Under the pieces are notes generated by a model. It was given only the letters and a program-made list of their open reading frames with translations. It did not search any database and was not told where the DNA came from. From assembly GCA_043824495.1 (NCBI GenBank), contig JBDRSV010000024.1, forward strand, positions 91,056 through 155,055: a stretch of 64,000 bases of DNA, in the 5' to 3' direction. Source of the DNA: Candidatus Aenigmatarchaeota archaeon. Its GTDB lineage: Archaea; Aenigmatarchaeota; Aenigmatarchaeia; QMZP01. A program made the translations under genes and the position numbers. Below, one piece after another: positions 17,250 through 36,609 of this stretch. Each line of letters starts with the position of its first letter. The first letter of the stretch is position 1.

Positions 17250-17639
17250 ATGAAGAAAAAAGCAAAGAGGACCACAAAGAAAACAGTGAAAAAACCAGTC
17301 AAGAAAATAAAAATAGAAAAGAGAGTAACACCAAAACCAAAAAAAGAAGAGAAAATTAAATGTCCTTATTGTAAGAGTTCTAGAGTGGTTTGGAGAGGAT
17401 ATAGATACAACGAAAAGACTGACAAGCACTTAAGATTATGTAACAACTGTAAGAGAAAGTTCACAAAAAGAGACGAGTTCTTCCGTATGAGATTCGGTGA
17501 AGAAGAGATAAAAAGAGCTGTGGAATTATACAAGAAAGGTTATTCTTCTGCAGAAGTAGTTCAGAACCTGAAAAGAAATCATGGAATAAAGGTTTCAAGA
17601 TGGACTGTGATCTGTTGGCATAAGAGATACACTAAGTAA
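17250..17639 (+). mobile_element. IS1-family InsA-like Zn-ribbon/HTH protein, solo with no InsB
   Basis: CPYCKSSRVVWRGYRYNEKTDKHLRLCNNCKRKFT mirrors the InsA CPSC...YLCSHCRKTW pattern. C-terminal HTH GYSSAEVVQNLKRNHGIKVSRWTV. TTTATA box about 26 nt upstream of ATG 17250. The track start TTG 17235 is less likely. Confidence 0.45.
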
Positions 17640-17659: not shown

Positions 17660-17681
17660 TATATCCCTTTAAATGGACAAT
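17660..17681 (+). repeat. junction motif copy 2 (TATATCCCTTTAAATGGACAAT)
   Basis: Exact AT-to-GC switch. Followed by hairpin GGAGAGGTGCAG...CTGCACACTCTCC, the terminator of minus-strand gene 17755..19629. Confidence 0.85.
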
Positions 17682-17754
17682 GCAAAGGGAGAGGTGCAGT
17701 ATTCCACATCTGCACACTCTCCCACCACATCACCTTTTCAGGCTTTGCAGATTT

Positions 17755-19629: not shown

Positions 19630-20175
19630 GGATTTTTATTCCTTAGGTTGTGAGGGAAATATGACCCTCCGGGTTTGTTTTTCGATTAGTTTCTGATTGT
19701 TTGTCGTTTACCACGTTTCCAAGTTAAGGTCCGCGAATCGCTATTTTCATTGGCATCCTCTCTTTGGGTTAATGTTGTCCGCACAAATTGCGGGATTAAA
19801 AGAAGGAAAGACACAAAAGATAGAGTATGTCTTATGTAGACTGAGAGTAAAATCATTCGAAGAATAAAGCTAATACTATTAAAACAAACATGCATGTTTG
19901 ATGTGTTTCTTTTCATGTTTTTTGTGTTAGCCAATGTACCGTTTCTATGGTTAATTGGATTGATTGAGTTGCAATCAATACAAATTTAAATGATGTTCGA
20001 ATGAGTAGCATGATTTAAATTGTATACAAAAATTGACGTTGATTCATCGTCGTTTTTTTGTGTTTTGGTATTTTTTTTGATTCTAGCTTGTCGCTTTTGT
20101 CAAGTCTTTAACTCAAGTATATAGCTTACAGGTATTTAAATGTTTTCTAACACATTTTTTTTAATTTTCTTTCTT

Positions 20176-20197
20176 TTATCCCTTTAAATAGACATAT
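20176..20197 (+). repeat. junction motif copy 3 (TTATCCCTTTAAATAGACATAT, slightly divergent)
   Basis: At the AT-to-GC switch that opens island C. Followed by inverted repeat AACGGGCG...CGCCCGTT. Confidence 0.75.
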
Positions 20198-20199
20198 AA

Positions 20200-23100
20200 A
20201 AAGGCAAACGGGCGAAGATTTGGAGCCAAACTCTTCTTGATGTCTCACCTCCGCCCGTTAAATGCCGTTGTCCGGCCTATCAATTTACCCGCCGGTTAGG
20301 TGAGCACATGTGCTCGTGTCCCAGAGGCGCATGTTTTCATGCCCTCCTTTGCCGGGTTCTTACGCGAACGTGCTGCTTGACCGAGATAATGTAGCTGCCA
20401 GATTCCCCACAACCTTGTTATTGGTGGAACCGCGACAGCGGTCGGTCCAGTCCGTATGCATCGTAGCCTCACTTGGTGAAGGACTGCGAATCAAGAGACG
20501 GGGATTCAGAAGAATCCCCGTCTCACGAGTTGACGGTTGGTACGAGATATATCAAAGGAAGTCTTTATGCCATTGGGTGCATTCCGAAACCTTTAGCCTC
20601 GTCCGTCTCCGAGGGATCCTATCAAAGGTTTCATAAAGGAAATTTCATGGACCTCGTTACGATAGGATCGGAGTGGCGTAAAGCCACGGCCAGAACCTCG
20701 AGGTCCCCCAGGATAAGATCACCGTTTGAATATGAGTCAGCGGTGAACGTAAGGGTGCTGGCGATTCTTCTTCGCATTCAAACCCTCCAGGGAACACTTC
20801 GTAATTTGTGTTGTCAGCGGCTGTTTACGAATCGGCGGTGATCGTTTCCACCACGGTACATGTCGGCGTGGTGACAAACGATGAAGAAGCGACTTCAAAA
20901 CGCGCGCGGCCATTGCTCGGCGGCGGCGAATGAGCCCAGGCATTGACGGCGGTCGCGGCGGTATTCATCCAGGAAGCGACCACTGGTGACCCGCGAAGGG
21001 TCGGTAATCGGTTCATAGAGCAAGCTCCATTTCTTCCGATAGGAAAATTCCAATCCACTTTACAAACTCTCGCCTAAACAGAAAGTATTGTCACATAACT
21101 TTCCGTCGCAAAAGAGAATGTGAAGAGGAAACAATTTCGTACACCTCGTCAAGAGATCGTCTCCATTTTCACCCTACATGGGCTAGGCGAGAGGATAGAC
21201 CAGTTGCTGATAGAGATGTAGAGGGAACCGTTTTCATCCGAAGATCTCTCCCGTCCCTCAGGGAGTAAGTTGCTCGTCCACCAGGTTCCCATACCAAGGG
21301 AGCTGGCAACTCTGCCATTCTCTCTATCCGACTCTCTGTTGTCATCGCCACTACGGCAACAACTCTTAGCCTATCCGGCGTAGGATTATGAGAGTGTAGA
21401 GCGAATTCCTCGTTCCATGTTTGTTCTGTATCGCTGCCTGTTATGATATCCAATCCTGAAAACGGGATTGGGTCAGCGGTATAAACAATACAGGAACCAT
21501 ATATGAGGTAGCAGAGTGTCATGATTCCCAGCATGACAACTCCTTACAAGGGCACATGGTTATATGGTAAATGCTCTCTCCGTCAACAAATCGTGCCCTC
21601 TAAGACATGTTTAGGAGAGAAAGGCGACAACTCATGAAGTGTTCTTCAGGTGGACCCGTCATCACTGTTATTGCGTTGACGGCCTTCTCCTTGACCCGGA
21701 CTTAGACGTGTGGCTTTCGGTGTTTTCGCGGCGCGTTTCTGCTGTTTTGGACTACGCTTCTTGTTGCTCGGAAGCCCGTCTCGGGCACCACCGTGACACG
21801 TCATGAAAGACCTCGTTTGTGAGGAGTTCAGTTCAAGCTTGTGCTGGAACTGTTTGGAACGAGGAATTGTTACTCTTTACGGCGAGCGATTGTGTGTCAT
21901 CGTAACTCCTTGACAATGGTTTCCACAAGCTCCAAAATAAAAAAGAGCTGTTGTTTTCAAATTCAGTTGGGAATCTCCTAGCCCGCCCCCAGAACTGACT
22001 AGAGGAGATCCCCAACTTTTGTACAGCGCACCCCGTGCATTGTTTTCAGGGTGGAGGGGCCCGGCGGTCAACTGAGCCCCTCACTGGACGAATCGGTCAC
22101 AGATAACATGTTACGCATTACCGACTCGAAATCTATGCCACGGCAGTAGATGGAAGTGGTCGCATCTACCGCCGGGCTTCACGACGTTGTGCATTTTGTC
22201 GCCTTCAGCCTTACACAACGCCGTTATTTCCCCACCCACAGGGAATTTAATATCGCGGGGCCTCACTCAGGAGACCCCGCTTCCGTTGGGTTTACTACCG
22301 AATTGTTCGGTAGCGTTCTTCCACGACAGACATACGCACATGCGCACGTCTTCATTTCTTTGAGGACCTACTCATCTCCGATTTGAGTAGGTCCTCGGCT
22401 CCCCACAACCCCCCGATCAGCACCGGGAATTTTTTTGAGGGGAAATCTGAGCAGATATCTCAGACTCCCCTCCCGTCAGGTCTACCGACCAGCACTTCCG
22501 GTTGGACGCCGGAAATTCTTTATTAGAAGGGGTTTCCCCTCTCCAAGAAACCCCTTCCTCTTCGGCGTAGCGCGTCTCACGCGCTTTAGTGCATCGATCC
22601 CCACCGATCAGGTAAAACCCTTGGATGGTTCTCTCCCCGAACCCCCACTGAAATATTTTGGAACCCCTCATAGATCCCCGTAATCTCCGAGAGGTTCCGA
22701 CAGCAGCACCATACAAATGGGACTACCGTGACAATCAAAAATACCGGAATCCACCGCGTCAGAAGAGGATTCCGGTATTCTACATCGCTGGTTGTGTTGA
22801 GAGCTTACCCCTTACTGGTCTTAACGAGTATGTTACGTCGGACTTCCTTTCACCAAATATACGGGTCACTACAGAATACCCGATCGATCCGCTTTGTTGT
22901 CTTAATCTCACCAGCGGATAGTGACGCGGTTACAGCCAGCGATTTCGCCTTTATACAACAGGCGTCTCCAAACCAAAATGGAAATTGGAGTTGTTGCTTC
23001 CACACTTCCGGATTTCCCCCTCCGGTAAACTCTAAGGTACTGATAGGTGACCGCTCGTGTTTCTTGTGTTCGCAATTGCCGATTGCATCAAGCTCTTCGT

Positions 23101-23800
23101 AGATCTAGATCTGGAAGTAATTAGCAAACGATCACAATAAACAGACAACTGGGAGAAGTCCATTTCTACCAGTACCTGGATTTTCTAACCCTCGGGAGGT
23201 GTGTACAAGCCTAAGCAGAGTTTGTCCTGTTGAATTGGCCCCGAGGGTAAGTGGCCTTCCGGAAGAGAATTGGTGAGGTCCTGTAACAGAACTCTATCTC
23301 ATTCCGGGGTAAAGCTCAAGGCACAGCCAGAAGGAGACGTATTACCTTGAGAAGTTGGTCTCCCGAGTGAAGAAATTCGAGATGTCCCATCGATGAAGGA
23401 CATCTCTTCTCCACTCGGGCTCATTCGTCAGCCTGGAAGGAGAAGTGCAAGAGTTTTCGCGCAATTACTCTCTCTCCTCCCGGGAAATTTATGACCTCCT
23501 GGTCCGAAACTTGTGCCGCGGTAAACCAGAAGGCGTAACTGCTAGGCTATGTGACGGCCACAGCAGTAGGGATCGAATCCAATACACGAAAGACAGCTAA
23601 GACTAACTCTGTCTCGTGTGGTTTACGAGTAAAATTCAGAAATCGATAGTCTTCGGCCTCTTCGAGGGAAACTGCTTAAGCGCTTAATTGCAGCGCGTTA
23701 TGTTTCCTGGTAAGTGACCTGTTCTCTAGGATGTACCGAAGGCTAACTTAGTTAGTCTCGGGAAATTCGCGTGTGATTGGTAGAAATGAAACATGAAATG
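20200..23800. other. GC-rich ORF-poor island C, dense in perfect hairpins; candidate structured ncRNA(s) or degraded foreign DNA
   Basis: No ORF over 125 aa in 3.6 kb, versus dense coding elsewhere. Many perfect 6-13 bp inverted repeats, e.g. 22363..22397, 22525..22556, 22741..22778, 23366..23430. Confidence 0.5.
21169..21534 (-). CDS. small hypothetical protein with N-terminal hydrophobic segment
   Basis: Perfect SD AAGGAG plus 5 nt before the ATG (rc of 21535-21546). MLGIMTLCYLIYGSCIVYTA is signal/TM-like. Confidence 0.4.
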   Translation of the reverse strand: MLGIMTLCYLIYGSCIVYTADPIPFSGLDIITGSDTEQTWNEEFALHSHNPTPDRLRVVAVVAMTTESRIERMAELPAPLVWEPGGRATYSLRDGRDLRMKTVPSTSLSATGLSSRLAHVG

Positions 23801-23949
23801 TCCTTATATATAAATGTAATTTAATTACTTAAATAGGTTGATGGATAGCTTTAAAAAGGTACTATTAAAATTATTTTTTTGTGAAGGGATCGATATACCA
23901 AGTGCTTCCAAAAATAAAGAGTAGAAAAAAATAAGAGTGAAAAAAGCAA

Positions 23950-25992
23950 TTAACCAATGAATTCAACCTTTTCAAAACTGCCGTTTTCTTCAAATTTGTC
24001 TAATGTTGATACGAAAATTATTACTTTTTTCTTGTCTTCTTTACAGATTCTAGCTGCTTGTTGTATTACCATGTTCTTGATTCTGTCTGAAGCACATATG
24101 AAATGATTGCTTTGTTTCAAGTCCTGATAAATTAATTCTCTATCATCTGTGTCTTCAACCATTATAGTTAATTCTTTTCCATCGTTCTGTAAATATATTC
24201 TGTTACCTTCTTGTTCACTCTTCCATCCGACTTCATTAAAGGTCTGCATGATACCTGTTAAGTTCAATTCTTTTTTCTGTGTTGAGTTACCAAATTTATT
24301 AGTGAAAACTTTCTCTCCTATATTTGTAAGAAAGTAATAACATAATCTATTCTTCTTAACTTTAGCATCAGCTGAATCAACTAATCCGTTATAAGTTAAG
24401 TTCTCAACCTTTTTCTTGAAAGTTGCTCCTGACATTTTTACATTTGTGTATATCTGAGATGTGTAAGCAGCACTACCATTACCAATGGTTTTCATCATAG
24501 CCCACTCTTGTTCTCCTAAATCCTCAATTGGAAGAGAGTTTATGAATTCTTCTTCCTTTACTGGAGGAGGTGAGTAGCTATCTTCTTTAGCTATTCTGTC
24601 TTTCATGTGCTCTCTGATATCATCATCTACAATAGAGTTCTTAACCAGTTTAGCCTTGTCGAATTTTACAAGGAATGGTTCTGGGAAATTCATAGAGTGT
24701 CTCAAAAGCATGAAACCGTGACCTACTGGCAGTCTTCTTAGATACTTACCTTCTTCTCTAGAATCAAGACCAAGCATGTTTGAAGCGTCTTGAATATCTG
24801 AAGTATGTTTTGTATCCAAACCTAGATTCATGTATATATGAGTAGAAGTATTACCAATTGCTGGATATGAAACTAAAGATGGATGCTGATCTATGTATAT
24901 CATTCCTAATCCTAATTCTCTAATTTCTCTAAATATTAATTCTACAACGGTTTCTGATCCTAATTTGGCAGATTTTTCTCTGTTAAGAACATGATGAGCT
25001 TCTTCCATCACTATACATCCTATGACTTCTTCTTTTCCGCCTTCTACGAGTAACCAATCTCTTATCCACTGTAGAATTATTTCTATGATAAAGCTCTTAT
25101 CATTAACATCAAGAGCATCTAATTCTAGAATTGTTACCTTTCCTTTCTTGAAGAAATCAGATGGTTTTATACCTTCTACACAGTCGAATATATGACCTGT
25201 GTCTTTGAAGCATAATGACTCTAATGGTCTTTCAGCTGTTGCTAACCAGTTTCTTTCTCTTGTTGGCAGCTTACCTTCTGCATATTCTGCTAAGTAATCT
25301 TTAAGGTCAAACAGTGTTGGATTTTTCTTTTCCTTGAAAACTCCATCTAAAGCTTTCAAGATTACGTGTCTTCCACCACCGAGTAACCAGTAAGAATGAT
25401 CGAATATTGAAGAGAACTCTTTCATCCACTGTGTTTGACTAATTCCTTTAGGACCTTTCAGTGGATTGAATTTGAAAGGAGCTACGCCTCTTCCGATTGT
25501 GTAAATATCTATTTTGTCTTTAATTTTAGTTGATAGTAAATCTTTATAATTTCTCTTAGAGAAATCAAATATCAAAACAGGAATATCCTTTTCTGCTAAT
25601 TCTTCAATTAAGTTATATGAAATATTTGTTTTACCATAACCAGATGAACCAAATATTCCTATATGTGTAAGTAAGTTTTTCTCTTCTAGCATGATTGGAT
25701 ATAAACCCTTTCTTCCGTATAAAACATCACCTAATCTAATTGTTCCTTTAGCTGCTGCTTCTTGGCTAGGAGGTTCCATTAGTACTGTATCTCTTAGATC
25801 TTCATCAGCAGAAACTGCGGCTTTTATAACATCAAGTAGTTCGAAGATTCTTTGTCTTACATCTTCGTTTCCAACTAAGTAAGCTTTACTTAATCTCAAA
25901 GCTTTGTCTTTACCCAAGATTGGAGTAAGCTTCTTAATTTCATCTGCAATTAGTTTTTCTTGAATATTAATCATTTGTACCACCCAAATCAT
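23950..25992 (-). CDS. HerA/FtsK-superfamily ATPase (DUF87-like) with C-terminal winged-helix region
   Basis: Walker A GIFGSSGYGKTN. Walker B IVMEEAHHVL (EEAH typical of HerA). C-terminal wHTH-like segment. Confidence 0.6.
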   Translation of the reverse strand: MIWVVQMINIQEKLIADEIKKLTPILGKDKALRLSKAYLVGNEDVRQRIFELLDVIKAAVSADEDLRDTVLMEPPSQEAAAKGTIRLGDVLYGRKGLYPIMLEEKNLLTHIGIFGSSGYGKTNISYNLIEELAEKDIPVLIFDFSKRNYKDLLSTKIKDKIDIYTIGRGVAPFKFNPLKGPKGISQTQWMKEFSSIFDHSYWLLGGGRHVILKALDGVFKEKKNPTLFDLKDYLAEYAEGKLPTRERNWLATAERPLESLCFKDTGHIFDCVEGIKPSDFFKKGKVTILELDALDVNDKSFIIEIILQWIRDWLLVEGGKEEVIGCIVMEEAHHVLNREKSAKLGSETVVELIFREIRELGLGMIYIDQHPSLVSYPAIGNTSTHIYMNLGLDTKHTSDIQDASNMLGLDSREEGKYLRRLPVGHGFMLLRHSMNFPEPFLVKFDKAKLVKNSIVDDDIREHMKDRIAKEDSYSPPPVKEEEFINSLPIEDLGEQEWAMMKTIGNGSAAYTSQIYTNVKMSGATFKKKVENLTYNGLVDSADAKVKKNRLCYYFLTNIGEKVFTNKFGNSTQKKELNLTGIMQTFNEVGWKSEQEGNRIYLQNDGKELTIMVEDTDDRELIYQDLKQSNHFICASDRIKNMVIQQAARICKEDKKKVIIFVSTLDKFEENGSFEKVEFIG

Positions 25993-26515
25993 TAAAGATC
26001 TTTAAGATCTTATTTTCTGTTTGTAGTTGTTCCAGGAGCTCTCTTAGCTCTGTTTTTAATTCTAATCCATCTCTCCAAAAAAGAATATTTTCTTGTCTTT
26101 TTTCTTTTCTGAGAATAGAAACATCAAGTTTGAAATTTCTCTTTTCATCGATGTCTGTGATATGATTCATCATATCGTCTTTTTCTTCGATGTCTTCTTC
26201 AATTTCTTTTAAGAATGTTTTGTGGAGAACTTCTCTTTCTTTCATAGTGTTTTCAATTTCACTAACTCTTATTTGCAAGAATTCTACTTTATCGAATAAG
26301 CTTCCAATAACTAGAGGATCATCTCTTTTTAGAGCAGTGAGTTTACTTTCTTCAAATCTTGGCATTGATCTTTTCTTAATAATTTGAACTTCTCTAACTT
26401 CGGGTTCATCTAGATCAATCTCATCATGTCTAATTAAAGACTCACGTCTTCTCTTTTTTGTAATGTCTTCATACTCGTCAAGAGTTTTATAATAGGGTTC
26501 CATTAATCTGTCCAT
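25967..26515 (-). CDS. coiled-coil protein, operon partner of the HerA-like ATPase
   Basis: 182 aa, highly charged heptad-like sequence. 26-nt overlap with the downstream ATPase gene. Confidence 0.45.
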   Translation of the reverse strand: MDRLMEPYYKTLDEYEDITKKRRRESLIRHDEIDLDEPEVREVQIIKKRSMPRFEESKLTALKRDDPLVIGSLFDKVEFLQIRVSEIENTMKEREVLHKTFLKEIEEDIEEKDDMMNHITDIDEKRNFKLDVSILRKEKRQENILFWRDGLELKTELRELLEQLQTENKILKIFNDLGGTND

Positions 26516-27342
26516 AATAATTACCTCGAGTGACCATTTGTCACTATCTGATAGTTAAAATATGTATAAAGGGTTTATAAAGCTTTCGGTTAGCTTGCAG
26601 TGTGCTGTTTTTGAGCGTAAAAATCGTGTACGAAAGACAATTTTCTTGGGTTTCCATGACTTTTGTGCCAACGAAAGACATATTCTGTCTTTAGTAAGAG
26701 AGTTAATAAAGATTTCTGTCTCGCGCCTTATAAAGGATCCGAATTGGATATTTTATATAGTAATTAATTACTATTGTAGAGATCTTTATTTACTTAAGTC
26801 TTTACATAAATAATTCTCAAATACTTTTTGTCTTTGCTAAAGTTTAATGCAGATTTTCCTCGAAACTTTTGTGGAAATTCTTGAAATCAAATGTCTTCTA
26901 GTTTTGCTAGAGCTTTTGAAGACATGGAAACTCTCATAAAACCCCAACCGAAAAGTATTTAAACCCTTTGACTATAATTTCACTATAGATTAGTGACAAC
27001 AAATTAAGAAATGTCTGAGTTATGTGTGGTGTCAAATCCTACATAACTATCTTTACAATCTACGCAACTTTGAATAAAAAGAATTTCGGGTTAAACTCGC
27101 AATTCTAAACTCAGAGAAATTGAGTGCACAGGAATTTAGGCGCGGCCTAAAATCCCCATAAGAAATCCAAAAAAATGACACGCTTTGTGTCAAAAAATGT
27201 GATTTGAGGGGGTTTGATTTCCTTAGCTCTGAGTATCTACTTTTCGAAAACCACGAAGACTCGCGTAACAATTCTAAGCAATAAATATAGTGAAATTCCA
27301 GACTTCTGTAGACTTTCGCTGTCTGACATAGAAATTAACAAG

Positions 27343-27354
27343 TTGACAATAAAC
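27343..27354 (+). promoter_or_regulatory. TTGACAATAAAC sigma70-like -35 element upstream of 27378 (copy 1 of the island D promoter cassette)
   Basis: Same TGACAAT(A/T)AAC as at 29368 and 30278. SD GGGAGGG before ATG 27378. Confidence 0.4.
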
Positions 27355-27377
27355 GGAAACTTCTGGGAGGGATTGTC

Positions 27378-27740
27378 ATGAGAAATATCATGAGCTGTGT
27401 TTTCCTGCTGCTCACATTATTCCTGGTGAGTTGTGCGAAAAGTGGTCCGGAGCTGGGGAGTGATATCCGGATCAGTGGAACAATCGTCGACATGAGCGAA
27501 GGAGGTAGTAGGGATTTCCTGATCCAGTCCGGAGGAAAACTCTACCATTTCGGTACTCGACTGCAATTTAAATGGAGTAAACTTCGTGCGGGACATTACG
27601 TCACCGTGGATGGGAAGTTTGGGGGACCGTGCGAGGAAGCCTCAATGTTCAGACGCTACATGTACGACGACGAAGGGAACTTCATCAAGTCCCTCGAGGT
27701 CTATGACATCATCCATGTTTCGAACGTGGAGAGGCAGTGA
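27378..27740 (+). CDS. lipoprotein (hypothetical)
   Basis: MRNIMSCVFLLLTLFLVSC has lipobox LVSC. GC-rich, with SD. Confidence 0.5.
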   Translation: MRNIMSCVFLLLTLFLVSCAKSGPELGSDIRISGTIVDMSEGGSRDFLIQSGGKLYHFGTRLQFKWSKLRAGHYVTVDGKFGGPCEEASMFRRYMYDDEGNFIKSLEVYDIIHVSNVERQ

Positions 27741-27869
27741 TCCCACTGAGTTCATCCAATTCATCGGGTGGACCCAGATGAGATTATTGTCTAAAGGCTA
27801 AATCAGCAGGCCTTGAATTGTTGGTAGGGATCATTGGAAGATTCCCAAAAACATGGCAAGGAGGGCAAC

Positions 27870-28022
27870 ATGTCGCAGGGAACCAAAAACACCAAAGACA
27901 CAGGAACAAGAGCGTTTCTGGTTATCGACGGAACTACAGGAGACCTCATTCCTGTGAAAGCATCGTCTGGACGAAAAGCTGAGCAAATCGCCGGCAGCGT
28001 AACCAGACAATCCCGCAAATAA
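27870..28022 (+). CDS. small hypothetical protein (50 aa)
   Basis: AAGGAGGG SD 7 nt before ATG 27870. Hairpin GAGTATC...GATACTC after the stop. Confidence 0.3.
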   Translation: MSQGTKNTKDTGTRAFLVIDGTTGDLIPVKASSGRKAEQIAGSVTRQSRK

Positions 28023-28159
28023 AATTACCCACTGTGAATTCCCCAGGAGTATCATCCGCCCGGAAGATACTCTGTTCTCCCCCATACTACCATAGGCCAC
28101 ACGGAGCTCATCAGGTTTTCACTTGGTGGGCTCCAGTGAGATCTTTGGTGGTTAACGTT

Positions 28160-28240
28160 CCATAACCGTTTCATTCACAACCTTTTGCCGACCTTGTCTG
28201 CATTGCAGCTCAAGGAAGTGTGTAAAGGAAGGAGAGTGTC
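28160..28240 (+). promoter_or_regulatory. conserved leader/promoter region copy A (CCATAACC...CCTTTTGCCGACCTTGTCTG...AAAGGAAGGAGA-ATG)
   Basis: About 75% identical to 32682..32757 upstream of gene 32758. Preceded by GAGCTCAT...GGTGGGCTC, similar to 31980-32030 and 32613-32665. Confidence 0.5.
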
Positions 28241-28942
28241 ATGTTATTGCATGTAACAGTAATAAGCCGCGGAGACAGAACAACGATCGATGTTCCCAGA
28301 ACAGAATTCAACTGGGATACCAATCAATGTCGCGTAGTTGAAGGTGCAGAGGAAGCTGAAAGAAATCTCGGGGTGGCGGAGAATCTCGAAATCCGTAAAC
28401 CCGCGGCTTACCAGGGACCCTATTTATACTGTATTGTAGAGGTGGGGTTCGAGGAAATTTGTTTTCCCCCGACTTTCCTCAAGTGGATCGAGAATGTTCC
28501 CGAGGATGAGAAAAGAGCCATCCTTATCGTTCCCACCAAAACCATCCGAAAGGCCGATGATAGTCACTATATGGGATCTATAGATCGTTATAGGTATTAT
28601 CCTCATGGTGAAGTCTTCCTGATTGGTCGCAGAATCATCGTGAGGAACATCTACCTATCACCTGATAACATCAAGATGGTGGTGGATAAAATCCTTGCCC
28701 GACTGAGTGACGGCCTGTTCCTCCGGTTGGCCTTTGAGTTTCTCCAGGCTACGCCGATCAGTGACAATCCTACGGTGACTGGAGAACATATCACCATGTT
28801 GGATAATCTCTTCACGGGGACGCGTTCCCTTCGGAGAGGAGATTCAACTCGTCGCGAACGGTTCAATCATGTTCGGGCCGTGATTGGACATATGGCCAAA
28901 CACGGGATAGTTCTGTCTGGCAAGATCGAACCCGTGAAGTAA
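28241..28942 (+). CDS. hypothetical protein
   Basis: 233 aa, GC-rich, strong SD AAGGAAGGAGAG. No family recognised. Confidence 0.5.
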   Translation: MLLHVTVISRGDRTTIDVPRTEFNWDTNQCRVVEGAEEAERNLGVAENLEIRKPAAYQGPYLYCIVEVGFEEICFPPTFLKWIENVPEDEKRAILIVPTKTIRKADDSHYMGSIDRYRYYPHGEVFLIGRRIIVRNIYLSPDNIKMVVDKILARLSDGLFLRLAFEFLQATPISDNPTVTGEHITMLDNLFTGTRSLRRGDSTRRERFNHVRAVIGHMAKHGIVLSGKIEPVK

Positions 28943-28995
28943 TCAACGGCTTGGAAACCAAGTCAAATCAACGACAATGAAAGTTGAGGTGTAAT

Positions 28996-29316
28996 ATGAA
29001 TAGGCGAATACAGAGTATGATTGTGATGACTGCGACTTTGATAGCTGTTGCAGTCTTTCTCCAAGTCTCACAGCTTCACGCGGCACATTTGATGGCAACC
29101 GCAATTGCAATTGCGGTTGTGGTGATGATCGTTGTTAACATGGGAAGAGTTCCCAACACTCGGCAGAAGTTTCGGAACTTCTCTGTCGGAGCCGTTTTCG
29201 GGAGCATCTTCCTGTGGGAGTTGTTCAAGGTTACGTTCTTGAATCACCCTGCGGCTCTTTGGAGTGTGGTTGTACTCGGAGCTGCGGCAGTCTCATTTCT
29301 GACGTTCCGCCGGTAG
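28996..29316 (+). CDS. small membrane protein
   Basis: Three hydrophobic helices. ATG 28996 preferred over the track start 28984. Confidence 0.4.
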   Translation: MNRRIQSMIVMTATLIAVAVFLQVSQLHAAHLMATAIAIAVVVMIVVNMGRVPNTRQKFRNFSVGAVFGSIFLWELFKVTFLNHPAALWSVVVLGAAAVSFLTFRR

Positions 29317-29330
29317 TACTGAAGTTCACC

Positions 29331-29380
29331 GGGGATCCCGATCAATCTGGTTGGGATCCCCTCAACCTGACAATAAACTG
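29331..29380 (+). terminator. hairpin GGGGATCC-N15-GGATCCCC followed by TTGACAAT -35 box (cassette copy 2)
   Basis: Perfect 8-bp stem right after stop 29316. The TGACAATAAAC repeat also occurs at 27343 and 30278. Confidence 0.5.
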
Positions 29381-29414
29381 TTGTTAAATGTTCCATTACA
29401 CCAAGGAGGGCGCA

Positions 29415-30233
29415 ATGCGTCACCAACGTTTCATCACCACAGTACTGGCACTCATGTTCTTGACTGTGCCGGCAATGTTCAGCAGTGCGGTTCTGGCCGA
29501 TCCGATTTCATCCGGAGACGGTCAAATGTATGTGGTCCAACAGGGAGATTGGTTGACGCGGCCGATCATCCCGACACTCTACTCGGATGTGTTGAAGCCA
29601 GGCGACTTGAAGAGTGCTCTCTGGATCGCTGACATCTTCGATACACTCAACATTAACATCACCCACCGCGACAAAATTCGGGCGTATGATACCATCATGG
29701 CGCCGTCATTCGCGGCGTTGAAGAAGTACAAACATCTCGCACCCGCCGACGTGGTCATCAACCTGTTCGCCACGTATGATATCGCGTCCATGGAACTTGT
29801 GGACGCCGAGTTTGTAAGAAAGCGCATCGAGGACTTTGAGGGTACTTACTGGTACAAAAATCGAGCCGCGTGGGCCCGAATTTTCGGAGTCGGTAATGGC
29901 ACGTATGTCTGCGGTGACACCGTGATGCCGTTCTCATGGTTCATGAGCTGCAATACGGACGGTAATACGGGAATGACTATCTCCATCTCCATGGACGAAG
30001 GAGATCTCACCGCAGTTCGCAAGGTTCCAGGTACACGTAACGGATTCTGGGGAGCCAGTCGTGACAATAAGTTCACATACGTGGGCTTCGGCAACGACTG
30101 GATCGATCGTTGCGACTGGAATGACGAGACCGAGAGCTGGGACATTCCACCAGTTCTGAATGAGATCGTCGGAACTCTCAACAACTTTCCATTCGTCCAG
30201 TATATGACCGTCGTCGCGTACGAACTGGAATAG
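29415..30233 (+). CDS. secreted hypothetical protein (paralog family with 30334..31659)
   Basis: Signal peptide TTVLALMFLTVPAMFSSAVLA. AGGAGGG SD. C-terminal FPFVQYMTVVAYELE resembles the paralog's FFTNMKVIMYTVK. Confidence 0.5.
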   Translation: MRHQRFITTVLALMFLTVPAMFSSAVLADPISSGDGQMYVVQQGDWLTRPIIPTLYSDVLKPGDLKSALWIADIFDTLNINITHRDKIRAYDTIMAPSFAALKKYKHLAPADVVINLFATYDIASMELVDAEFVRKRIEDFEGTYWYKNRAAWARIFGVGNGTYVCGDTVMPFSWFMSCNTDGNTGMTISISMDEGDLTAVRKVPGTRNGFWGASRDNKFTYVGFGNDWIDRCDWNDETESWDIPPVLNEIVGTLNNFPFVQYMTVVAYELE

Positions 30234-30241
30234 TTGTTACA

Positions 30242-30290
30242 GGGGATCCTGACCAATTCGGTTGGGATCCCTTCAACTTGACAATTAACG
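30242..30290 (+). terminator. hairpin GGGGATCC-N15-GGATCCC followed by TTGACAAT (cassette copy 3)
   Basis: About 80% identical to 29331..29380. Confidence 0.5.
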
Positions 30291-30333
30291 TAACATGTTA
30301 ACAATGAATACCAACAGAGAAGGAGAAAGTCAA

Positions 30334-31659
30334 ATGTGTAACATCATCATCCGTACCATCGTGGCACTGGCACTCATGGTTCTGATCGTGCCGGCCATCA
30401 CCAACATCGCAATTGCGGACGGAACGCCGTGTGGTCTCACCGTAGGTAATGGCAACGACATCGATCGCGACTTCGTTGCATTCCTCAACAAAGAAGGAAT
30501 CAGATGGTTAACAATCGAGGAATTCGTTGAGTGCTACTCCCAACTGATCGGTCCAGGTAGTACCATGTTGAGCACCACTCGGGGATATGGCTGGGGATAT
30601 ATTGACGTTCCTTTCAAGTTTGGCGATTCGGTCGCGTCTATAGTGAACATGGAGATCATGCCAGGCGTCCGGATCAATATGGCTTGGGATCAAGCGGTCA
30701 TCTTCTACAAATATGCGAATAATCATGGAATGCATATTCTGAAGAAGACGGAGAATGACCGTGAGGTTCCGGCCTGGAGCGGCTTGATTGATGAAGCTAC
30801 GGTGCGTCAACATGTCAACGGCTTCGAAGTGTCCGCGCAGATTCCGAGTGATGTTCTGGAATCGGATGTTGCGATTATCCGGATGCGAGATTTAAAGGAC
30901 GCCTACTTGGCCGAGAACACCGACGTTATCGAGTCTTACCTCATCGAGAAGTTTGACCTCGACGACGATTCCGAGCCGTATTCTGACAATCGGCCAAATA
31001 TATTTCATCGCAGTGGCGAAGTCTTACTGGACTCGGAGATGTTCTTCGTGTATGAAGGTCTGGAAATTCTCAATCTCATCATCAATGATCGGTGGATTGG
31101 TGTACGATTCCCCGGATCGACCTATATCCACTTCATCAACATCGGACCGAGAAAAGTCCACGACTTGAATGCCAACTTCGTCGAGACGAAAACTCCGAAC
31201 AACACCGGCGGTCAGATCAGTATCCCGCAGGATGTGATCGAAAAGATGACGTGGATCGATTCCGTCTATTCGGATAGGATGTCCCCGAATCCGATGTTAG
31301 GTTTCGGAAACGGTGAGTACCTGGCGAGCTCTGGGATCGTTTCGTTCGCGTGGGTTGCCTGGACCAACACCGATGGCAACCTCCAGTTCTATCTCAATGT
31401 TCTCCTTAACATTGATCATCAGGTGACGATCGAGACTGTGTCTCACTACGGTGGGCCTGATGTTTGGAGGGCGTGGAGTCCGAATCAGACCTGCACAGAG
31501 GTGGAGACTGGAAACGGCTGGTGTTATATTCACTGTTCCCAGTCGGAAAGTGGACCTCGAATCTGCGACTATAGACAAGCCTTGGACGATGCAGTCGCGG
31601 CGTTCAATGGCATCGATTTCTTCACGAACATGAAGGTGATCATGTACACGGTGAAGTAA
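30334..31659 (+). CDS. secreted hypothetical protein (paralog of 29415..30233)
   Basis: Signal peptide IVALALMVLIVPAITNIAIA. SD GAAGGAG. ATG 30334 preferred. Confidence 0.5.
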   Translation: MCNIIIRTIVALALMVLIVPAITNIAIADGTPCGLTVGNGNDIDRDFVAFLNKEGIRWLTIEEFVECYSQLIGPGSTMLSTTRGYGWGYIDVPFKFGDSVASIVNMEIMPGVRINMAWDQAVIFYKYANNHGMHILKKTENDREVPAWSGLIDEATVRQHVNGFEVSAQIPSDVLESDVAIIRMRDLKDAYLAENTDVIESYLIEKFDLDDDSEPYSDNRPNIFHRSGEVLLDSEMFFVYEGLEILNLIINDRWIGVRFPGSTYIHFINIGPRKVHDLNANFVETKTPNNTGGQISIPQDVIEKMTWIDSVYSDRMSPNPMLGFGNGEYLASSGIVSFAWVAWTNTDGNLQFYLNVLLNIDHQVTIETVSHYGGPDVWRAWSPNQTCTEVETGNGWCYIHCSQSESGPRICDYRQALDDAVAAFNGIDFFTNMKVIMYTVK

Positions 31660-31948
31660 AGCCGAACGCCACGAATTACTAATCCGCTCTTCTTCCCAAA
31701 GAAGTGTGGCTAGTGTGAAAGGAGTATGGGAAGGTTCCACAGTAGTAGCATCAACGGCAAAAAGTAAAAGACAAAAAAATGAAGGCCAAACCCGAGGAGG
31801 AACTCGAAGTGAAGACGAAACGAAGGTCATGCCAATATCCCATTTCGCCCATGATGGCGACTCATATTCTCATAGTCTGACCGGCCGCCGGCGACGCCAC
31901 GGGCCTCTTATATAGTTAGCGGGGCCCATCGCCAATGCAGTCAAAATC

Positions 31949-32030
31949 CCGGGTAGGCTTCAACCCCTACCCGGGGTTCCAAATGAGCTCATCTAGTTCA
32001 GATATTTTCTAGGTGGGCCCATTTGGAATT
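31949..32030 (+). promoter_or_regulatory. hairpin CCGGGTAGG...CCTACCCGG plus inverted repeat TTCCAAATGAGC-N28-GCCCATTTGGAA
   Basis: A second copy with the same architecture lies at 32580..32665. Confidence 0.45.
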
Positions 32031-32092
32031 GTAAATGATTGTTGACTGTTCAATGAGCGTTCCGAAAGGAACATTGCAAGGAGATTTTTATC

Positions 32093-32557
32093 ATGACACA
32101 GCAGATGACATCAGTACCAGATGGTTGGGGCGGAGCAGGTGGCGACAGTCTCGGCACAGATGCACTCGAGCTTCTGAAGAAAATGGGATTCGACAATGCA
32201 ATGGGACAAGCGTTGCTCGGCAGCTTTAATCCACAGGGTTTCGTGGATGCGCTTCTCACGTTCCGACCGTTCCCGGTTGGCGGAGTCTCTCCCGAAGCTC
32301 GGAACGAGAGCAGAGAAGCTCAGTGGATTTATCTCACATGGATCTTCACCAGTCGGCAGAGAGCCTCCTTTCCCGTCGAAGGGGTGAGTGGCCTTGCTGA
32401 CTTCGTGGATATTGTCCGGAAAGCACAGAGCGATGCGGACGCGAACGAACATGCAGTTCGAATCTTGTCCAGGTTTGGGTGTGTCGATCTCCTCGTTGGT
32501 GAAGGTCGGACCTTCTTGCACACGAAAGCCATCGATTTCGCTAATTCCCAAACGTAA
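32093..32557 (+). CDS. hypothetical protein
   Basis: 154 aa, SD AAGGAG, GC-rich. Confidence 0.45.
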   Translation: MTQQMTSVPDGWGGAGGDSLGTDALELLKKMGFDNAMGQALLGSFNPQGFVDALLTFRPFPVGGVSPEARNESREAQWIYLTWIFTSRQRASFPVEGVSGLADFVDIVRKAQSDADANEHAVRILSRFGCVDLLVGEGRTFLHTKAIDFANSQT

Positions 32558-32579
32558 GTCCGCGACATCACCAACCAAT

Positions 32580-32665
32580 CCCGGGAACAAGACAGTTCAA
32601 TCTGTTCCCGGGTTCCAAATGAGTTCATGTGGTTTGATTTCTTGACTAGGTGGGCTCATTTGGAA
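32580..32665 (+). promoter_or_regulatory. hairpin CCCGGGAACA...TGTTCCCGGG plus inverted repeat TTCCAAATGAGT-N29-GCTCATTTGGAA (copy 2)
   Basis: Immediately after stop 32557. Contains TTGACT. Similar to 31949..32030. Confidence 0.45.
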
Positions 32666-32681
32666 TTGAGTTGTAGTAGAA

Positions 32682-32757
32682 CCATAACCCATTCACGACC
32701 TTTTGTCGACCCTGTCTGATATCAGTTCAGGGAAGAATCTAAAGGAAGGAGAATTCA
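32682..32757 (+). promoter_or_regulatory. conserved leader/promoter region copy B
   Basis: CCATAACCCATTCACGACCTTTTGTCGACCCTGTCTG...AAAGGAAGGAGAATTCA-ATG matches 28160..28240. Confidence 0.5.
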
Positions 32758-34749
32758 ATGCATTCACTCCAAGAAGTAAAAGAACACATCAAGACAACGA
32801 TGTGCAAAGCGGTTCAAGTGAATCGCTGGATGATGTGGATCGCGCTCGTCGTCATATGTATTGTGGCGATTGAGTTGTTCGTTTGGTTGCCTTCACTGCC
32901 AGAAGAGGCGCAAGACGTCCTTTCCCCATTCATAGAAGGTGGAAACAGGAATGCAGGCACGTTATTACTCCACTTCTTCTGTTTCATGGGTGCATTGGTG
33001 TCTATCTTCTTCAAAATCTTCGGTCCGATCACAAGATCTTATGATAATACACTTTTCTGGGAACTCCATCTGGGTGGAACAAAAAGGATCGGATTCCGCC
33101 TGGGTGACTGGCCTACTGGTGTGTTCATTGAAGCGGCAGACGTTCTCAGTGATTTACCAGCGAATGTCAGGAAAAGAATTCCGTGCACCCAGTATGCTGT
33201 TTCTCGAATTAAAAGCGTAACGGAATTCGACGACAGCGGTAGAGCCATCGTCCCACGGGATGAGAGTGTGTCTTCTGTGAGATTCGCCACAGTGGATGAT
33301 GGTCGACCGGGAACGCTCGACTTGGATAGGGTGTTCTCCTGGGCGCATAAGTACATCCGAGGCTATTATATCTGCCTGGCCTTTACATGTCTGTTCCTGG
33401 CTTGGCCGGTGATAACCGGCTACTCGATCGCGAGCTTCATGCACGACCTCCCGGTCCAGATCCACGACATCGCTGTTGACCCATCTCAGAATTCGACGAA
33501 AGTAATCGTCAGTTCTGATCGCAATGTCCGGTATGACTCAAGAATCGAGGTTGCAGATGACTGTGTCTGCTCCCGATTCATTCTGAACATATACCCGGCA
33601 AAGTGTGATTTCCTGGAGGAGATCTTTGCCAGTGACTATGTAATGAGAGGGTATTATGGGGCTCGAACCAACACCGGGCAGCTCTCCGAAGCAACTGGAT
33701 GGAATGGTGTCAGGCAAATCAACATCAGACAAGTTGGTGACACCATCAAGATTGTACTCGGCCTGAAAGATATGGTTGAGTACGCAATGAGTCGCTCGTC
33801 AGAGCACGGCACAAAGGATCTGGTCGTTGGTCTGGACACGCCAGTCGAGTCCAAACAGACATCGGGCGAATATTGGACCGCGAACAAGTTCGCAGATCAG
33901 TACGAAGTTCCTGACAACAATGCCCGTCGCGAGTCATCGTGTGGTGAATGGAAGTCGTTCGTCAGATTTGTATCTGCGGATAGTAACAACGTATACTTCT
34001 CTGCCAGATACGGTGGAGTGTACAGAGTGGATATGAATGGATGGATTGACACGATCGTCCCAAACAACGAGGTTGATTACTACCACACGCCAGTGAGTAG
34101 CGGTAATAAACTCGCTGGCATCCATGATGGGAATGATCTCTGTATTGTGGATATGGATACCAGAAAGGTCAAGAACGTCACCCATGGACAAATATGGGAC
34201 GTCGATTGGGTCTCGGACACCGGACTCGTGTTCTGGAGAGATCTTGATGGTGTCTGTTACTACTCCCTCTCTGCGGACTCGTCTTGGTCTTTGAACAAAA
34301 AGGCCAAATTCCCATCTGTGTGTGGGGATAAGATATTCTACCTCACACACTTACGCACCCATCGGGATGAGTGGGATTCCACACTAATCTGGGAGATGAG
34401 CCTTGACGGGTCTTCCAGAACCGTAGCTAGGTTGAAGGGAGGCTACTCACACCTGAGTATGTCTTCGGACTGCTCAATTGCAGTTCTGAAAGAGCCGTAT
34501 AGTTCTGACCGCACGTGGGTCAATAGAATCAAAACATTCTCCTTCAACGACTGCATTATGACAACACTGACGGAGTGTGGTGAGTCTCCAAGGATCACTA
34601 CAGACAATCGAATTGTTTATGTCAAGTTGTATCCTGTGGAGGGGCGTGGGGATTTCAACTCGAACTCAGAAGTCCGGATCATGGATCTGGACGGCAGAAA
34701 CGACACCTTGATTGTCAACAGAGAGGAACTCCGGAAGTTTCCGATGTAA
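32758..34749 (+). CDS. large membrane-anchored protein with extracytoplasmic beta-rich domain (hypothetical)
   Basis: Two N-terminal TM helices, then about 560 aa rich in W/Y/D/G turns; possibly propeller-like. Confidence 0.5.
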   Translation: MHSLQEVKEHIKTTMCKAVQVNRWMMWIALVVICIVAIELFVWLPSLPEEAQDVLSPFIEGGNRNAGTLLLHFFCFMGALVSIFFKIFGPITRSYDNTLFWELHLGGTKRIGFRLGDWPTGVFIEAADVLSDLPANVRKRIPCTQYAVSRIKSVTEFDDSGRAIVPRDESVSSVRFATVDDGRPGTLDLDRVFSWAHKYIRGYYICLAFTCLFLAWPVITGYSIASFMHDLPVQIHDIAVDPSQNSTKVIVSSDRNVRYDSRIEVADDCVCSRFILNIYPAKCDFLEEIFASDYVMRGYYGARTNTGQLSEATGWNGVRQINIRQVGDTIKIVLGLKDMVEYAMSRSSEHGTKDLVVGLDTPVESKQTSGEYWTANKFADQYEVPDNNARRESSCGEWKSFVRFVSADSNNVYFSARYGGVYRVDMNGWIDTIVPNNEVDYYHTPVSSGNKLAGIHDGNDLCIVDMDTRKVKNVTHGQIWDVDWVSDTGLVFWRDLDGVCYYSLSADSSWSLNKKAKFPSVCGDKIFYLTHLRTHRDEWDSTLIWEMSLDGSSRTVARLKGGYSHLSMSSDCSIAVLKEPYSSDRTWVNRIKTFSFNDCIMTTLTECGESPRITTDNRIVYVKLYPVEGRGDFNSNSEVRIMDLDGRNDTLIVNREELRKFPM

Positions 34750-34830
34750 GCGTGTAGTTATCATTCACACCCCGCCTGGATTCAATTCCAGGCGGGGTTG
34801 ATCATGAAATAAAGAGAAGGGGAGTGTACC

Positions 34831-35835
34831 ATGATAAAAATGTTTGGTAAACTGCTCTGCGGAGTTGCCATGGTTGTAGGCGGGTTGATCGCAGTGCTAG
34901 CGACGATCACTTTCTTCGCAGTCATTGGGAACATGGTAATCGATACTTACAAAATTGGCATGCATTTCTCTCCGTTGTTACCGACAGCCTTCATCAGCCT
35001 TTGGGTCGCCGCCGTCATGCTTTGGATTACCACCCTCGGCGCGAAAGGCCTCGGATGGTCGGTATCATGCCATTTGAAATTCAACATCGGTTACGGTTCC
35101 ATGCTGCTGGGAATCGTCGGCGTAATTGTGATCCTGGGATACTACACATATCTCTTCACCTTTGCTGACATCCCAGGACAACTGGTTGTCCTCAGTATTG
35201 ACGGTATGGAGACGTTCAGTCGGGTGGAAGTTCGTCTCATGAAAATCATGGATTTGGTGCCTCTACTATTCGCATCCATTTGCACCGGATTCACCGGACT
35301 GGCTCTCTGGTGGGGACGAATACAATCAATCCGGTTTCCGTTCTCCCGTTGGTTCGGAATCGCTGTCGCGATGATTCTTGTTATTGTCATGGCAGTGCCT
35401 GTTCTTGGTCAGGCCGATTCCACAGGCTTCACTGAGGCCAAGACCCATCTTTGTGGGATGCAGATGAATTATGCTGAATATTTCGGTGAGTTGTTCGCGG
35501 CGCGTTTCGCATCCCGGGAACTTGATATCAATATCTTCGATGCCGATGAAGAGTGGATGTGGAGAATGGTTGATTCAACATTCTACCGAAGGGATACACT
35601 CTTTGCTGTCAGAGACGGGTTCTCGTCGGTATTTAATATGGCCGAAGAGAAGGCCGAGCTTGTGGCCGCGACTGATCTGGCGAGAATTGTCGGGAAAATC
35701 AGGGGAATCCCGGAAGGTGAACGCGTTCCTTTAAGGTATTGTTTCCGTGGGGGACAGTTCATCAAGAAAGATACAAACAGAGGTTACCATGCGGTTGTAG
35801 TGCAGATTCTTCCGCTGTCTGAGAATCTGGAGTGA
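34831..35835 (+). CDS. polytopic membrane protein with C-terminal soluble domain (hypothetical)
   Basis: About 6 TM helices in the first 200 aa. SD GGGGAG. Confidence 0.5.
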   Translation: MIKMFGKLLCGVAMVVGGLIAVLATITFFAVIGNMVIDTYKIGMHFSPLLPTAFISLWVAAVMLWITTLGAKGLGWSVSCHLKFNIGYGSMLLGIVGVIVILGYYTYLFTFADIPGQLVVLSIDGMETFSRVEVRLMKIMDLVPLLFASICTGFTGLALWWGRIQSIRFPFSRWFGIAVAMILVIVMAVPVLGQADSTGFTEAKTHLCGMQMNYAEYFGELFAARFASRELDINIFDADEEWMWRMVDSTFYRRDTLFAVRDGFSSVFNMAEEKAELVAATDLARIVGKIRGIPEGERVPLRYCFRGGQFIKKDTNRGYHAVVVQILPLSENLE

Positions 35836-35876
35836 AACCAACATTATCCTTTCAACATTTGATGGAGGACGGGTCA

Positions 35877-36222
35877 TGAAACTAGTCTTAAATCGTAGGC
35901 ATCTTATAGATCCCGCCAGTGTCATTGGGCCACGCGTGAACTGGTTGTTCTCCTGAATGGCCAAGAGGTTCAGGTGCGTCCTATCGACCAGACGATAATT
36001 CTGATCGGACGCGATCCGGAATGTGACGTAATACTCGATAATCGCGCCGTCGACTTCTTCCATGCTCACATTGATTTCGGCGAGAATTTTGTAGTAATTG
36101 ACAACGTGTCACTCAACGGCACGTTTGTCAACGGAGAAAAGGTCGAGAAAGCGGTTCTCCGTCCTGGTGATGTGATCACAATAGCCAGGTATGAGATTCA
36201 CATCCGGTCCCTCCGGAAGTAG
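35877..36222 (+). pseudogene. FHA-domain protein, apparently frameshifted (or non-ATG start at GTG 35974)
   Basis: FHA core LVVLLNGQEVQVRPIDQTIILIGRDPECDVIL...NGTFVNGEKV lies in a frame with no ATG. A GGAGG SD plus ATG 35877 lie in another frame that terminates after 26 codons. Confidence 0.4.
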
Positions 36223-36286
36223 ACGACGCGATGGTAGTCTTGTTCCAATTCCGTACAGGTGTTTACAAAATCTGTGCGGGATTTGT

Positions 36287-36308
36287 ATTGTCTAATTAAA
36301 GGGATATA
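36287..36308 (-). repeat. junction motif copy 4 (ATTGTCTAATTAAAGGGATATA; reverse-complement orientation)
   Basis: GC-to-AT switch at the end of island D, after the FHA gene. Confidence 0.85.
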
Positions 36309-36390
36309 AGAGTTAAGGCTTTGCACAAAAACTCTGTTTTACACAAAAACTGTGCTTAGCCTAAAAAATTCAAGAAAAAGGAGGTGAAGC

Positions 36391-36609
36391 GTGAAAAAGG
36401 TTAAAAGTTGGAAATCTAAAGATAATAATATGATGATTACTCCAAGATTAGTGTTAATGTTCATTTTTGGACTTATTGCTATTTATGGTCTTTTTGCTGC
36501 TCTTAGTCCAGAAAGGTATATAATTCCTCTAGTTTCAGGTGAATTTGCACAAATTATTGGGTTTATTATATTTATCATAGCAGGTTATTTTTTTGTTAGG
36601 TTTAGATAA
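36391..36609 (+). CDS. small membrane protein
   Basis: GTG start with AAGGAGGTG SD. Two TM helices. Confidence 0.4.
   Translation: MKKVKSWKSKDNNMMITPRLVLMFIFGLIAIYGLFAALSPERYIIPLVSGEFAQIIGFIIFIIAGYFFVRFR

Follow-up and report, generated by a model that had tools for sequence, protein, structure and literature searches.

The DNA analysed here is a 64-kb stretch (the window) of an AT-rich Aenigmatarchaeota metagenome-assembled genome (MAG), in which segments of ~33% GC alternate with segments of ~50% GC. One of the GC-rich segments, island D, carries co-oriented genes, and a cassette composed of a stem-loop followed by a promoter-like box recurs upstream of several of them. The genes concerned, all on the forward strand, encode a lipoprotein with the lipobox LFLVSC (27378-27740), a secreted protein of 272 residues (29415-30233) that lies between the two full cassettes, and a secreted protein of 441 residues (30334-31659). 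The latter two are paralogs, as the first-pass annotation, made from the sequence alone, had proposed, though distant ones: they are 24% identical over 130 aa (E = 9e-8), have a common C-terminal domain and both carry signal peptides.

A repeat search of the window returned a gap-free direct repeat of 51 nt, 29328-29378 against 30239-30289, at 84% identity, which bears out the two-copy repeat first placed at ~29331 and ~30242. Each copy opens with an inverted repeat, GGGGATCC(C/T)-N13-GGGATCCC(C/T), laid out as a 13-14-bp stem-loop (GGGGATCC...GGATCCCC), and continues into the box YTCAACYTGACAATWAAC. In the first copy, hairpin A1 (GGGGATCCCGATC-AATCT-GGTTGGGATCCCC, 29331-29361, +) starts 14 nt past the TAG (29314-29316) of a membrane-protein gene (28996-29316) and is followed by box A1 (TCAACCTGACAATAAAC, 29362-29378, +). 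In the second, hairpin A2 (AGGGGATCCTGACC-AATTC-GGTTGGGATCCCTT, 30241-30273, +) starts 7 nt past the TAG (30231-30233) of the 272-aa gene and leads into box A2 (TCAACTTGACAATTAAC, 30273-30289, +). The two boxes end 36 nt upstream of ATG 29415 and 44 nt upstream of ATG 30334, and a strong Shine-Dalgarno sequence (AAGGAGG/GAAGGAG) stands ahead of each start codon, in agreement with the earlier description of copies placed after a stop codon and 35-45 nt before the next ATG.

A third copy consists of the box without a hairpin (CAAGTTGACAATAAAC, 27339-27354, +) and lies 23 nt before the ATG of the lipoprotein gene; the 12-mer TTGACAATAAAC previously noted there (27343-27354) is an exact match. Against the 16-mer consensus CAACYTGACAATWAAC this copy has 1 mismatch, at a chance expectation of 0.31 for matches with at most 2 mismatches, and in a window scan with a covariance model derived from both full copies it received 17.4 bits (E = 0.017), its hairpin positions counting as deletions. 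Beyond these three copies, the model returned from the window only weaker antisense images of the two hairpins, and the bare 12-mer shows no enrichment there (14 matches at up to 2 mismatches vs 11.4 expected). A fourth, degenerate instance (28948-28981, +), weak and recognised post hoc, combines a small hairpin, GGCTTGGAAACCAAGTC (-8.5 kcal/mol, z = -3.7), with AAATCAACGACAATGAA, the box itself reading GACAATGAA at 28973, upstream of the membrane-protein gene 28996. The pattern GGGATCC-N8-20-GGATCCC matches twice in the window and in 0 of 100 dinucleotide-preserving shuffles. The hairpin-plus-box repeat is genuine and not a product of chance, and selection has probably maintained it as a control module.

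Strand preference of the stem-loop and readings of the box

The sense-strand RNA of A1 folds at -25.6 kcal/mol (z = -4.5) and that of A2 at -23.0 kcal/mol (z = -5.3), in both cases with 0 of 200 shuffles equally stable; the corresponding antisense values are -18.5 and -16.6 kcal/mol. The antisense folds are weaker because the inner four or five stem pairs depend on G.U; the stem search gave A1 a stem of 14 bp and a loop of 3. All three stem differences between A1 and A2 retain pairing (C-G to U-G, U-G to C-G and G-C to G-U). The sense-strand preference and the pairing-keeping substitutions argue that the hairpin probably acts in RNA, i.e. in the sense transcript, and not in duplex DNA.

The cassette had been described as a terminator joined to a promoter. 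As regards the terminator, a strong, sense-strand-specific stem-loop is indeed present and resembles an intrinsic terminator in its G+C-rich stem, its position a few nt past a stop codon and its greater strength on the sense strand, but it differs in lacking a U-tract. A terminator scan called neither the A1 nor the A2 stem, and their spacers contain no T5 run. Without a T-tract the hairpin is not a canonical intrinsic terminator, and its sequence does not support termination in the bacterial or the archaeal sense.

As regards the promoter, the three boxes contain the -35-like hexamers CTGACA (29367), TTGACA (30278) and TTGACA (27343). A sigma-70 scan scored copy 2 at 10/12 as TTGACA(30278)-16-AACAAT, and called copy 3 in another register only (CTGACA 27323-16-GACAAT, with GACAAT as the -10 element). 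In archaeal terms, the AATAAAC/AATTAAC of the box resembles the TATAAAC/TTTATAA found 20-23 nt before many host start codons, and the 23 nt from the box end of copy 3 to its ATG is the geometry of a leaderless archaeal mRNA. To judge from these motifs, the box can be read as a bacterial -35 element (TTGACA) or as an archaeal TATA-like AATAAAC, and neither reading is uniformly satisfied. The promoter claim has in its favour the good -35 match of TTGACA and the score of copy 2, the one copy with a -10 element at 16-18 nt; copy 1 fails the scan, and copy 3 has no more than 23 nt between box and ATG.

Origin of the two copies

In an alignment of 250 nt around each cassette, identity between the copies is 29% over the 3' end of the upstream gene, 83% without gaps over hairpin and box, 36% with indels in the 5' untranslated region (UTR), 44% in the signal-peptide n-region, 72% over 47 columns in the signal-peptide h-region and 22% over the remainder downstream. 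The h-region DNA (29442-29477, + in the 272-aa gene, paired with 30364-30399, + in the 441-aa gene) is the second conserved block of the duplicated unit. Such a mosaic is expected after a tandem duplication if selection kept two blocks. Neutral DNA would not hold 83% identity while the proteins fell to 24%, and one recent conversion tract would not have passed over the UTR. Because the full copies precede paralogs and are accompanied by common signal-peptide DNA, a tandem duplication explains them without mobility. The simplest origin would be a tandem duplication of module, signal peptide and gene, with selection acting on the module.

We propose, with about even confidence, that two paralogous secreted-protein genes in tandem each possess a copy of one 5' control module, and that the cassette is this duplicated module. 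An ancestral unit of stem-loop, 17-nt box, 5'UTR with Shine-Dalgarno sequence, signal peptide and gene would have been copied in tandem, whereupon the mature proteins and the UTR would have drifted to background, with the stem-loop, the box and the signal peptide held by selection. Within the sense transcript, the stem-loop would close off the upstream cistron as a 3'-end structure and could pause or weakly terminate RNA polymerase or block 3'-exonucleases; the box would be recognised by RNA polymerase or by a regulator acting on the next gene. A shared regulatory role for the repeated cassette upstream of co-oriented genes is reasonable, since it is conserved far above its surroundings, and the box before the lipoprotein gene together with the degenerate copy before 28996 suggests that a few envelope and secreted proteins are regulated together. 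The locus would then exemplify how a duplicated gene for a secreted protein can keep its regulatory DNA and signal peptide although everything else in it has become unrecognisable, and the cassette would be a candidate control sequence for genes without homologs.

Several observations weigh against this proposal. Neither stem has a T/U-tract on its 3' side (the stems are followed by CTCAACCTGAC and TTCAACTTGAC), and the two full copies offer one-sided stem variation only, with no double-sided covariation. Copy 1 has no -10 element at the proper spacing in the sigma-70 scan, the box lacks the A-rich stretch that precedes host TATA boxes, and its distance to the ATG varies (23, 36 and 44 nt), the 23-nt gap of copy 3 being too short for a leader with its apparent Shine-Dalgarno sequence. 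Moreover, the island may have been acquired recently and not be expressed in its host at all.

Competing explanations and the junction motif

The strongest alternative, which we still consider unlikely, is a purely RNA-level intercistronic element: island D would be transcribed as a single long polycistronic RNA, its stem-loops would stabilise the message or mark processing points and so determine how abundant each cistron is relative to the others, and the box, A/U-rich and single-stranded, would serve not as a promoter but as a cleavage site for an endonuclease or as some other signal in RNA. The sense-strand specificity of the hairpin fits this explanation, and so does the make-up of the island. 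Every island D spacer contains at least one strong stem-loop shortly past the stop codon, and all five sense-strand stems of at least 12 bp fall in the intergenic 17% of the island, which makes post-cistron stem-loops a general feature of island D. The spacers lack T-tracts, with a single T5 run (at 32085) in 9 kb of the sense strand (27000-36000, +) and no further one before 36464, whereas T-runs, which signal termination in archaea, stand at the ends of most AT-rich host genes; in the host, the nine island D genes would have no recognisable archaeal termination signal between them. In addition, the -10 element is weak or absent, and the other spacers (P2 module) have no recognisable promoter of either type. 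Intercistronic mRNA-stabilising stem-loops are represented by the repetitive extragenic palindromic (REP) sequences of E. coli malE-malF and by the puf operon hairpins of Rhodobacter. By analogy, the island D elements may act likewise on RNA, as strong stem-loops without a U-tract between cistrons; they differ from REPs, which occur in hundreds of dispersed copies and lack a promoter-like box. What speaks against an RNA-only role is copy 3, where the box is kept as a DNA sequence, similarly placed, in front of a gene without a hairpin; that gene, as the first of the island, needs a promoter. Nor was any known ribonuclease motif matched, and Rfam 15 gave no gathering-score match in the window and none at E ≤ 1 in 26500-36500.

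Next in standing, and quite improbable in our view, is a regulatory cassette that is mobile or recombinogenic, like the promoter-early stem-loops (PeSLs) of T4-type phages or the putative mobile promoters (PMPs). Recombination would both spread its repeats and use them as substrates, and orphan genes would be exchanged in the process. PeSLs are composite terminator/promoter cassettes (PMC2839356, PMC4122927), and the overall layout of the cassette (stem-loop, promoter box, Shine-Dalgarno sequence and ATG, between orphan genes) is closest to theirs: in both, a stem-loop stands directly upstream of a TTGACA-type box, then come Shine-Dalgarno sequence and start codon, and the cassette is repeated between small orphan genes of a variable region with direct copies on either side of a gene. 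The 272-aa orphan gene is flanked in just this way, and the island genes are near-orphans. PeSLs differ, however, in possessing a full -35/N17/-10 promoter, where here a -10 element is found in one copy only, in forming many copies in hyperplastic regions of phage genomes, as opposed to two full copies in 64 kb, and in marking the ends of indels between sister phages, the present locus lying in an archaeal MAG. No phage genes were detected among the island D proteins (no PHROG matches), and there are no terminal repeats or target duplications. Nor did a related genome with the island turn up, its proteins being orphans and the DNA scans of the collections empty. PMPs are defined as 50-100 nt long, at least 80% identical and at most 150 nt upstream of the start codons of non-homologous genes (PMC3488235). 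The cassette agrees in length (51 nt), identity (84%) and distance (36/44 nt before the ATGs), but because it precedes paralogs a PMP screen would discard it, and it falls outside the definition. With only two full copies, both before paralogs and with homology extending into the signal peptide, it behaves as tandem duplication predicts, and the suggestion in the first-pass annotation of a mobile module is unsupported for it. We regard the cassette as a new instance of an ordinary kind of composite stem-loop/promoter control region.

A second upstream module makes a better case for mobility. It aligns over ~150 nt between 28095-28240 and 32612-32757, with ~80% identity over the last ~80 nt, and precedes genes 28241 and 32758, unrelated genes whose two proteins have no detectable similarity; unlike the cassette, it fits the PMP definition (28160-28240 / 32678-32757). 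It consists of a G.U-rich hairpin (GAGYTCATC...GGTGGRCYC) followed by CCATAACC..CATTCACRACCTTTTGYCGACCYTGTCTG...AAAGGAAGGAGA, with a partial third copy, TCATTCAC, at 34761, and supports a propagation of regulatory modules within island D. This second hairpin family has four copies, at 27744, 28103, 31983 and 32619; those apart from the module lie in 27744-27778 and 31975-32030.

Further copies of the cassette were sought in public collections, as the first-pass annotation had advised, and none that is genuine was found in IMG/VR, GTDB genomes or JGI metagenomes. GGGATCC-N12-16-GGATCCCNTCAAC had 0 matches in IMG/VR and GGATCCCNTCAACNTGACAAT had 0 in the GTDB genomes. In JGI metagenomes GGATCCCNTCAACNTGACAAT matched six times, each time without the 5' arm and within unrelated and for the most part coding DNA, which makes these chance matches. 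The window's own copies were not returned, so none of the three collections contains this organism and the negatives are weak. Neither in GTDB genomes nor in IMG/VR was a locus detected with a profile of the shared C-terminal domain, and blastn against plasmids and phages returned nothing. An origin as a miniature inverted-repeat transposable element (MITE) or REP element was rejected: there are no dispersed copies in the window, and the homology of the copies ends at ACNGGGG and at AAC without terminal inverted repeats or target-site duplications.

A ~28-nt motif, TATATCCCTTTAAWTAGACAATATAAA, is found at the borders of the islands. Six copies with at most 2 mismatches in 20 nt are present, vs 0.05 expected, and a seventh is weaker (3004-3033, -; 15241-15267, +; 17221-17247, +; 17660-17686, +; 20175-20201, +; 36282-36309, -; 56967-56993, +). 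This junction motif occurs at every AT-to-GC junction in constant orientation, with AT-rich DNA upstream and GC-rich DNA directly after, and in the direction of the island genes it always follows the last gene and a variable hairpin; at the opposite (5') island ends no shared motif was found. Two copies form an inverted pair 21 kb apart (15240-15267 / 36282-36309, 93% complementary). Two direct copies enclose the gene of a 129-aa basic protein with zinc ribbon and helix-turn-helix (17250-17639, +), which resembles IS6-family transposases (NF033587, E = 5e-5) over their first ~50 residues only, also matches the zinc domain of IS1/IS1595 (E = 0.002) and has no DDE domain; the motif copy at 17221 lies 22 nt before its ATG (17250), like a leaderless promoter.

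The best non-training match in the window to a profile of the seven copies is box A2 (30267-30286, E = 0.28), and the alignment of motif and box has the common positions ATCCCTT.AA.T.GACAAT. The mobile-cassette explanation draws on this match in a variant in which the cassette possibly derives from the host junction motif as an insertion sequence (IS)-end-like promoter; the similarity is statistically borderline, which counts against it and makes the link no more than a lead. Taken further, the box (ATCCCYTCAACYTGACAAT) would be a relative of the junction motif, an IS6-derived site would capture bacterial-type DNA and wire its genes, and the cassettes would be internal copies of that site, with the orphan 129-aa DNA-binding protein possibly involved. 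We rate this capture scenario a long shot; if true, it would amount to an IS26-like, integron-like platform for cross-domain gene acquisition in a DPANN archaeon.

It is likewise very unlikely that the inverted repeat serves as a DNA-level operator, i.e. as two palindromes occupied, just upstream of the core promoter, by a regulator in the form of a dimer of dimers. The arms do contain a self-complementary octamer, GGGATCCC at 29332 and 29353 and GGGATCCT/GGGATCCC at 30243 and 30264 in the second copy, and the palindromes are 21 bp apart centre to centre, two helical turns; this spacing, and the place directly upstream of a -35-like hexamer, would fit a class-I-type activator or repressor site. 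Yet the stem runs 4-5 bp past the palindromes via sense-only G.U pairs, where the substitutions keep RNA pairing, the box-only copy 3 has no palindromes, and Pfam, PHROGs and NCBIfam scans detected no DNA-binding domain in any island D protein.

A non-functional leftover of duplication or a gene-conversion patch would agree with a copy number of only two, and we hold it to be highly improbable: the UTR and coding sequence have decayed to background and 51 nt are still 83-84% identical with zero indels, the substitutions respect the stem, and the box recurs independently.

Integron-type attC sites between gene cassettes have next to no likelihood here, the fit being superficial: co-oriented orphan genes, each with a 3'-end hairpin, in an archaeal genome carrying foreign DNA, archaeal integrons having been described (PMC9668308). 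An attC site combines R'' RYYYAAC and R' GTTRRRY around an imperfect palindrome of 57-141 nt, whereas the present stem is perfect, 31-33 nt long and without extrahelical bases, folds better on the top strand, and no RYYYAAC...GTTRRRY core pair occurs in any island D spacer on either strand. No tyrosine recombinase was found in the 64-kb window (no PF00589-type (IntI) match among the open reading frames (ORFs) scanned); clusters of attC sites without IntI (CALINs) exist, so the absent integrase alone is not decisive, and the hypothesis was rejected on the joint absence of cores, imperfect bulged structure, folding strand and integrase.

Island D in its archaeal setting

In NCBI the island proteins are annotated under a Candidatus Aenigmatarchaeota MAG, on a contig of 171,815 bp. 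The AT-rich part of the window is archaeal, with genes for a YGR210-type GTPase, an intein-containing inositol-1-phosphate synthase and ribosomal proteins L7Ae, S28e and L24e and with TATA-box promoters. That the alternation of GC-rich and AT-rich segments is an assembly chimera is unlikely, in view of the same mosaic in an independent Logan assembly of SRR26275509 and of the conserved motif at the junctions, the copies of which are not identical. A bacterial origin of the islands is suggested by the relatives of their proteins in bacteria (Parcubacteria and Zixibacteria names). Their strong Shine-Dalgarno sequences would suit an archaeal host too.

For the proteins of island D themselves, Pfam, PHROGs and NCBIfam yielded nothing usable, and the lipoprotein (27378) has no family match. 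The 272-aa protein and a 663-aa protein matched only themselves among 5.8 billion protein clusters. For the 441-aa protein, an exhaustive HMMER search of 1.84 billion representatives gave 12 weak relatives, all small secreted proteins, one of them named Parcubacteria group bacterium and another located in a bacterial genome. In the two relatives with readable context the genes have hairpin+T-run terminators, TTGACA-17-TAnnnT promoters, AGGAGG ribosome-binding sites and ATG, an order of parts that counts in favour of the proposed control module; these spacers are of the ordinary terminator-promoter kind, without the hairpin-box element.

A neighbouring island contains the gene of a protein (17755-19629, -) with SdrD_B and FlgD_ig domains and a C-terminal sorting domain of the type IX secretion system (T9SS). 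Relatives named Zixibacteria are 50-62% identical to it over the C-terminal half, and its best full-length homolog (45%) is in a bacterial genome with UvrA, RuvABC and RecJ. A cargo protein of the T9SS would be of no evident use to an archaeon. A Zixibacteria-like donor was considered for island D and rejected: unlike island D, the genome with the T9SS homolog has T-tract terminators and no strong Shine-Dalgarno sequences.

Several ~50% GC, bacterial-looking islands in a ~33% GC DPANN archaeal contig raise the question of how an archaeal host transcribes foreign genes, ends their transcripts and regulates them, because bacterial promoters and terminators should not work there. Island D, with its T-tract-less hairpins, dual-readable boxes and conserved junction motif, is a concrete place to test this. 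The surrounding architecture, bacterial-type orphan islands with an IS-end-like boundary motif in a DPANN archaeon, is a more interesting lead than the cassette.

At the left edge of island D, a 54-nt inverted repeat (26538-26591 / 26946-26999) is 74% complementary, with its arms 354 nt apart. Each arm contains a host-type TATA region (TTTATAAACCC / GTATTTAAACCC); one makes up the promoter region of gene 25967-26515 (-), the other is directed into island D.

Elsewhere in the window, the 4.3 kb of 19630-23950 (~48-52% GC) contain a single called gene (21169-21534), with all ORFs at or below 142 aa, together with about a dozen near-perfect hairpins of 10-15 bp, one every ~80-100 nt and densest in 21900-22820, that have no Rfam match. 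An apparent tRNA gene (~11071-11235, +; 5' AGCCCCGTAGTGTAGTGGTCAA ... 3' GCGGTTCGAATCCGCACGGGGCTA), seen by eye only and missed by ARAGORN and Rfam, is split by ~90 nt of extra sequence and lies just upstream of the arginyl-tRNA synthetase gene. The myo-inositol-1-phosphate synthase gene (47035-49560, -) contains an intein with a LAGLIDADG homing-endonuclease domain inside. The first GC-rich island, which ends at the motif copy 3004-3033, carries a gene for an M32 (Taq-type) carboxypeptidase (868-2388, +; 57% GC); its GTG-start product matches no recorded gene, so the annotated start probably differs.

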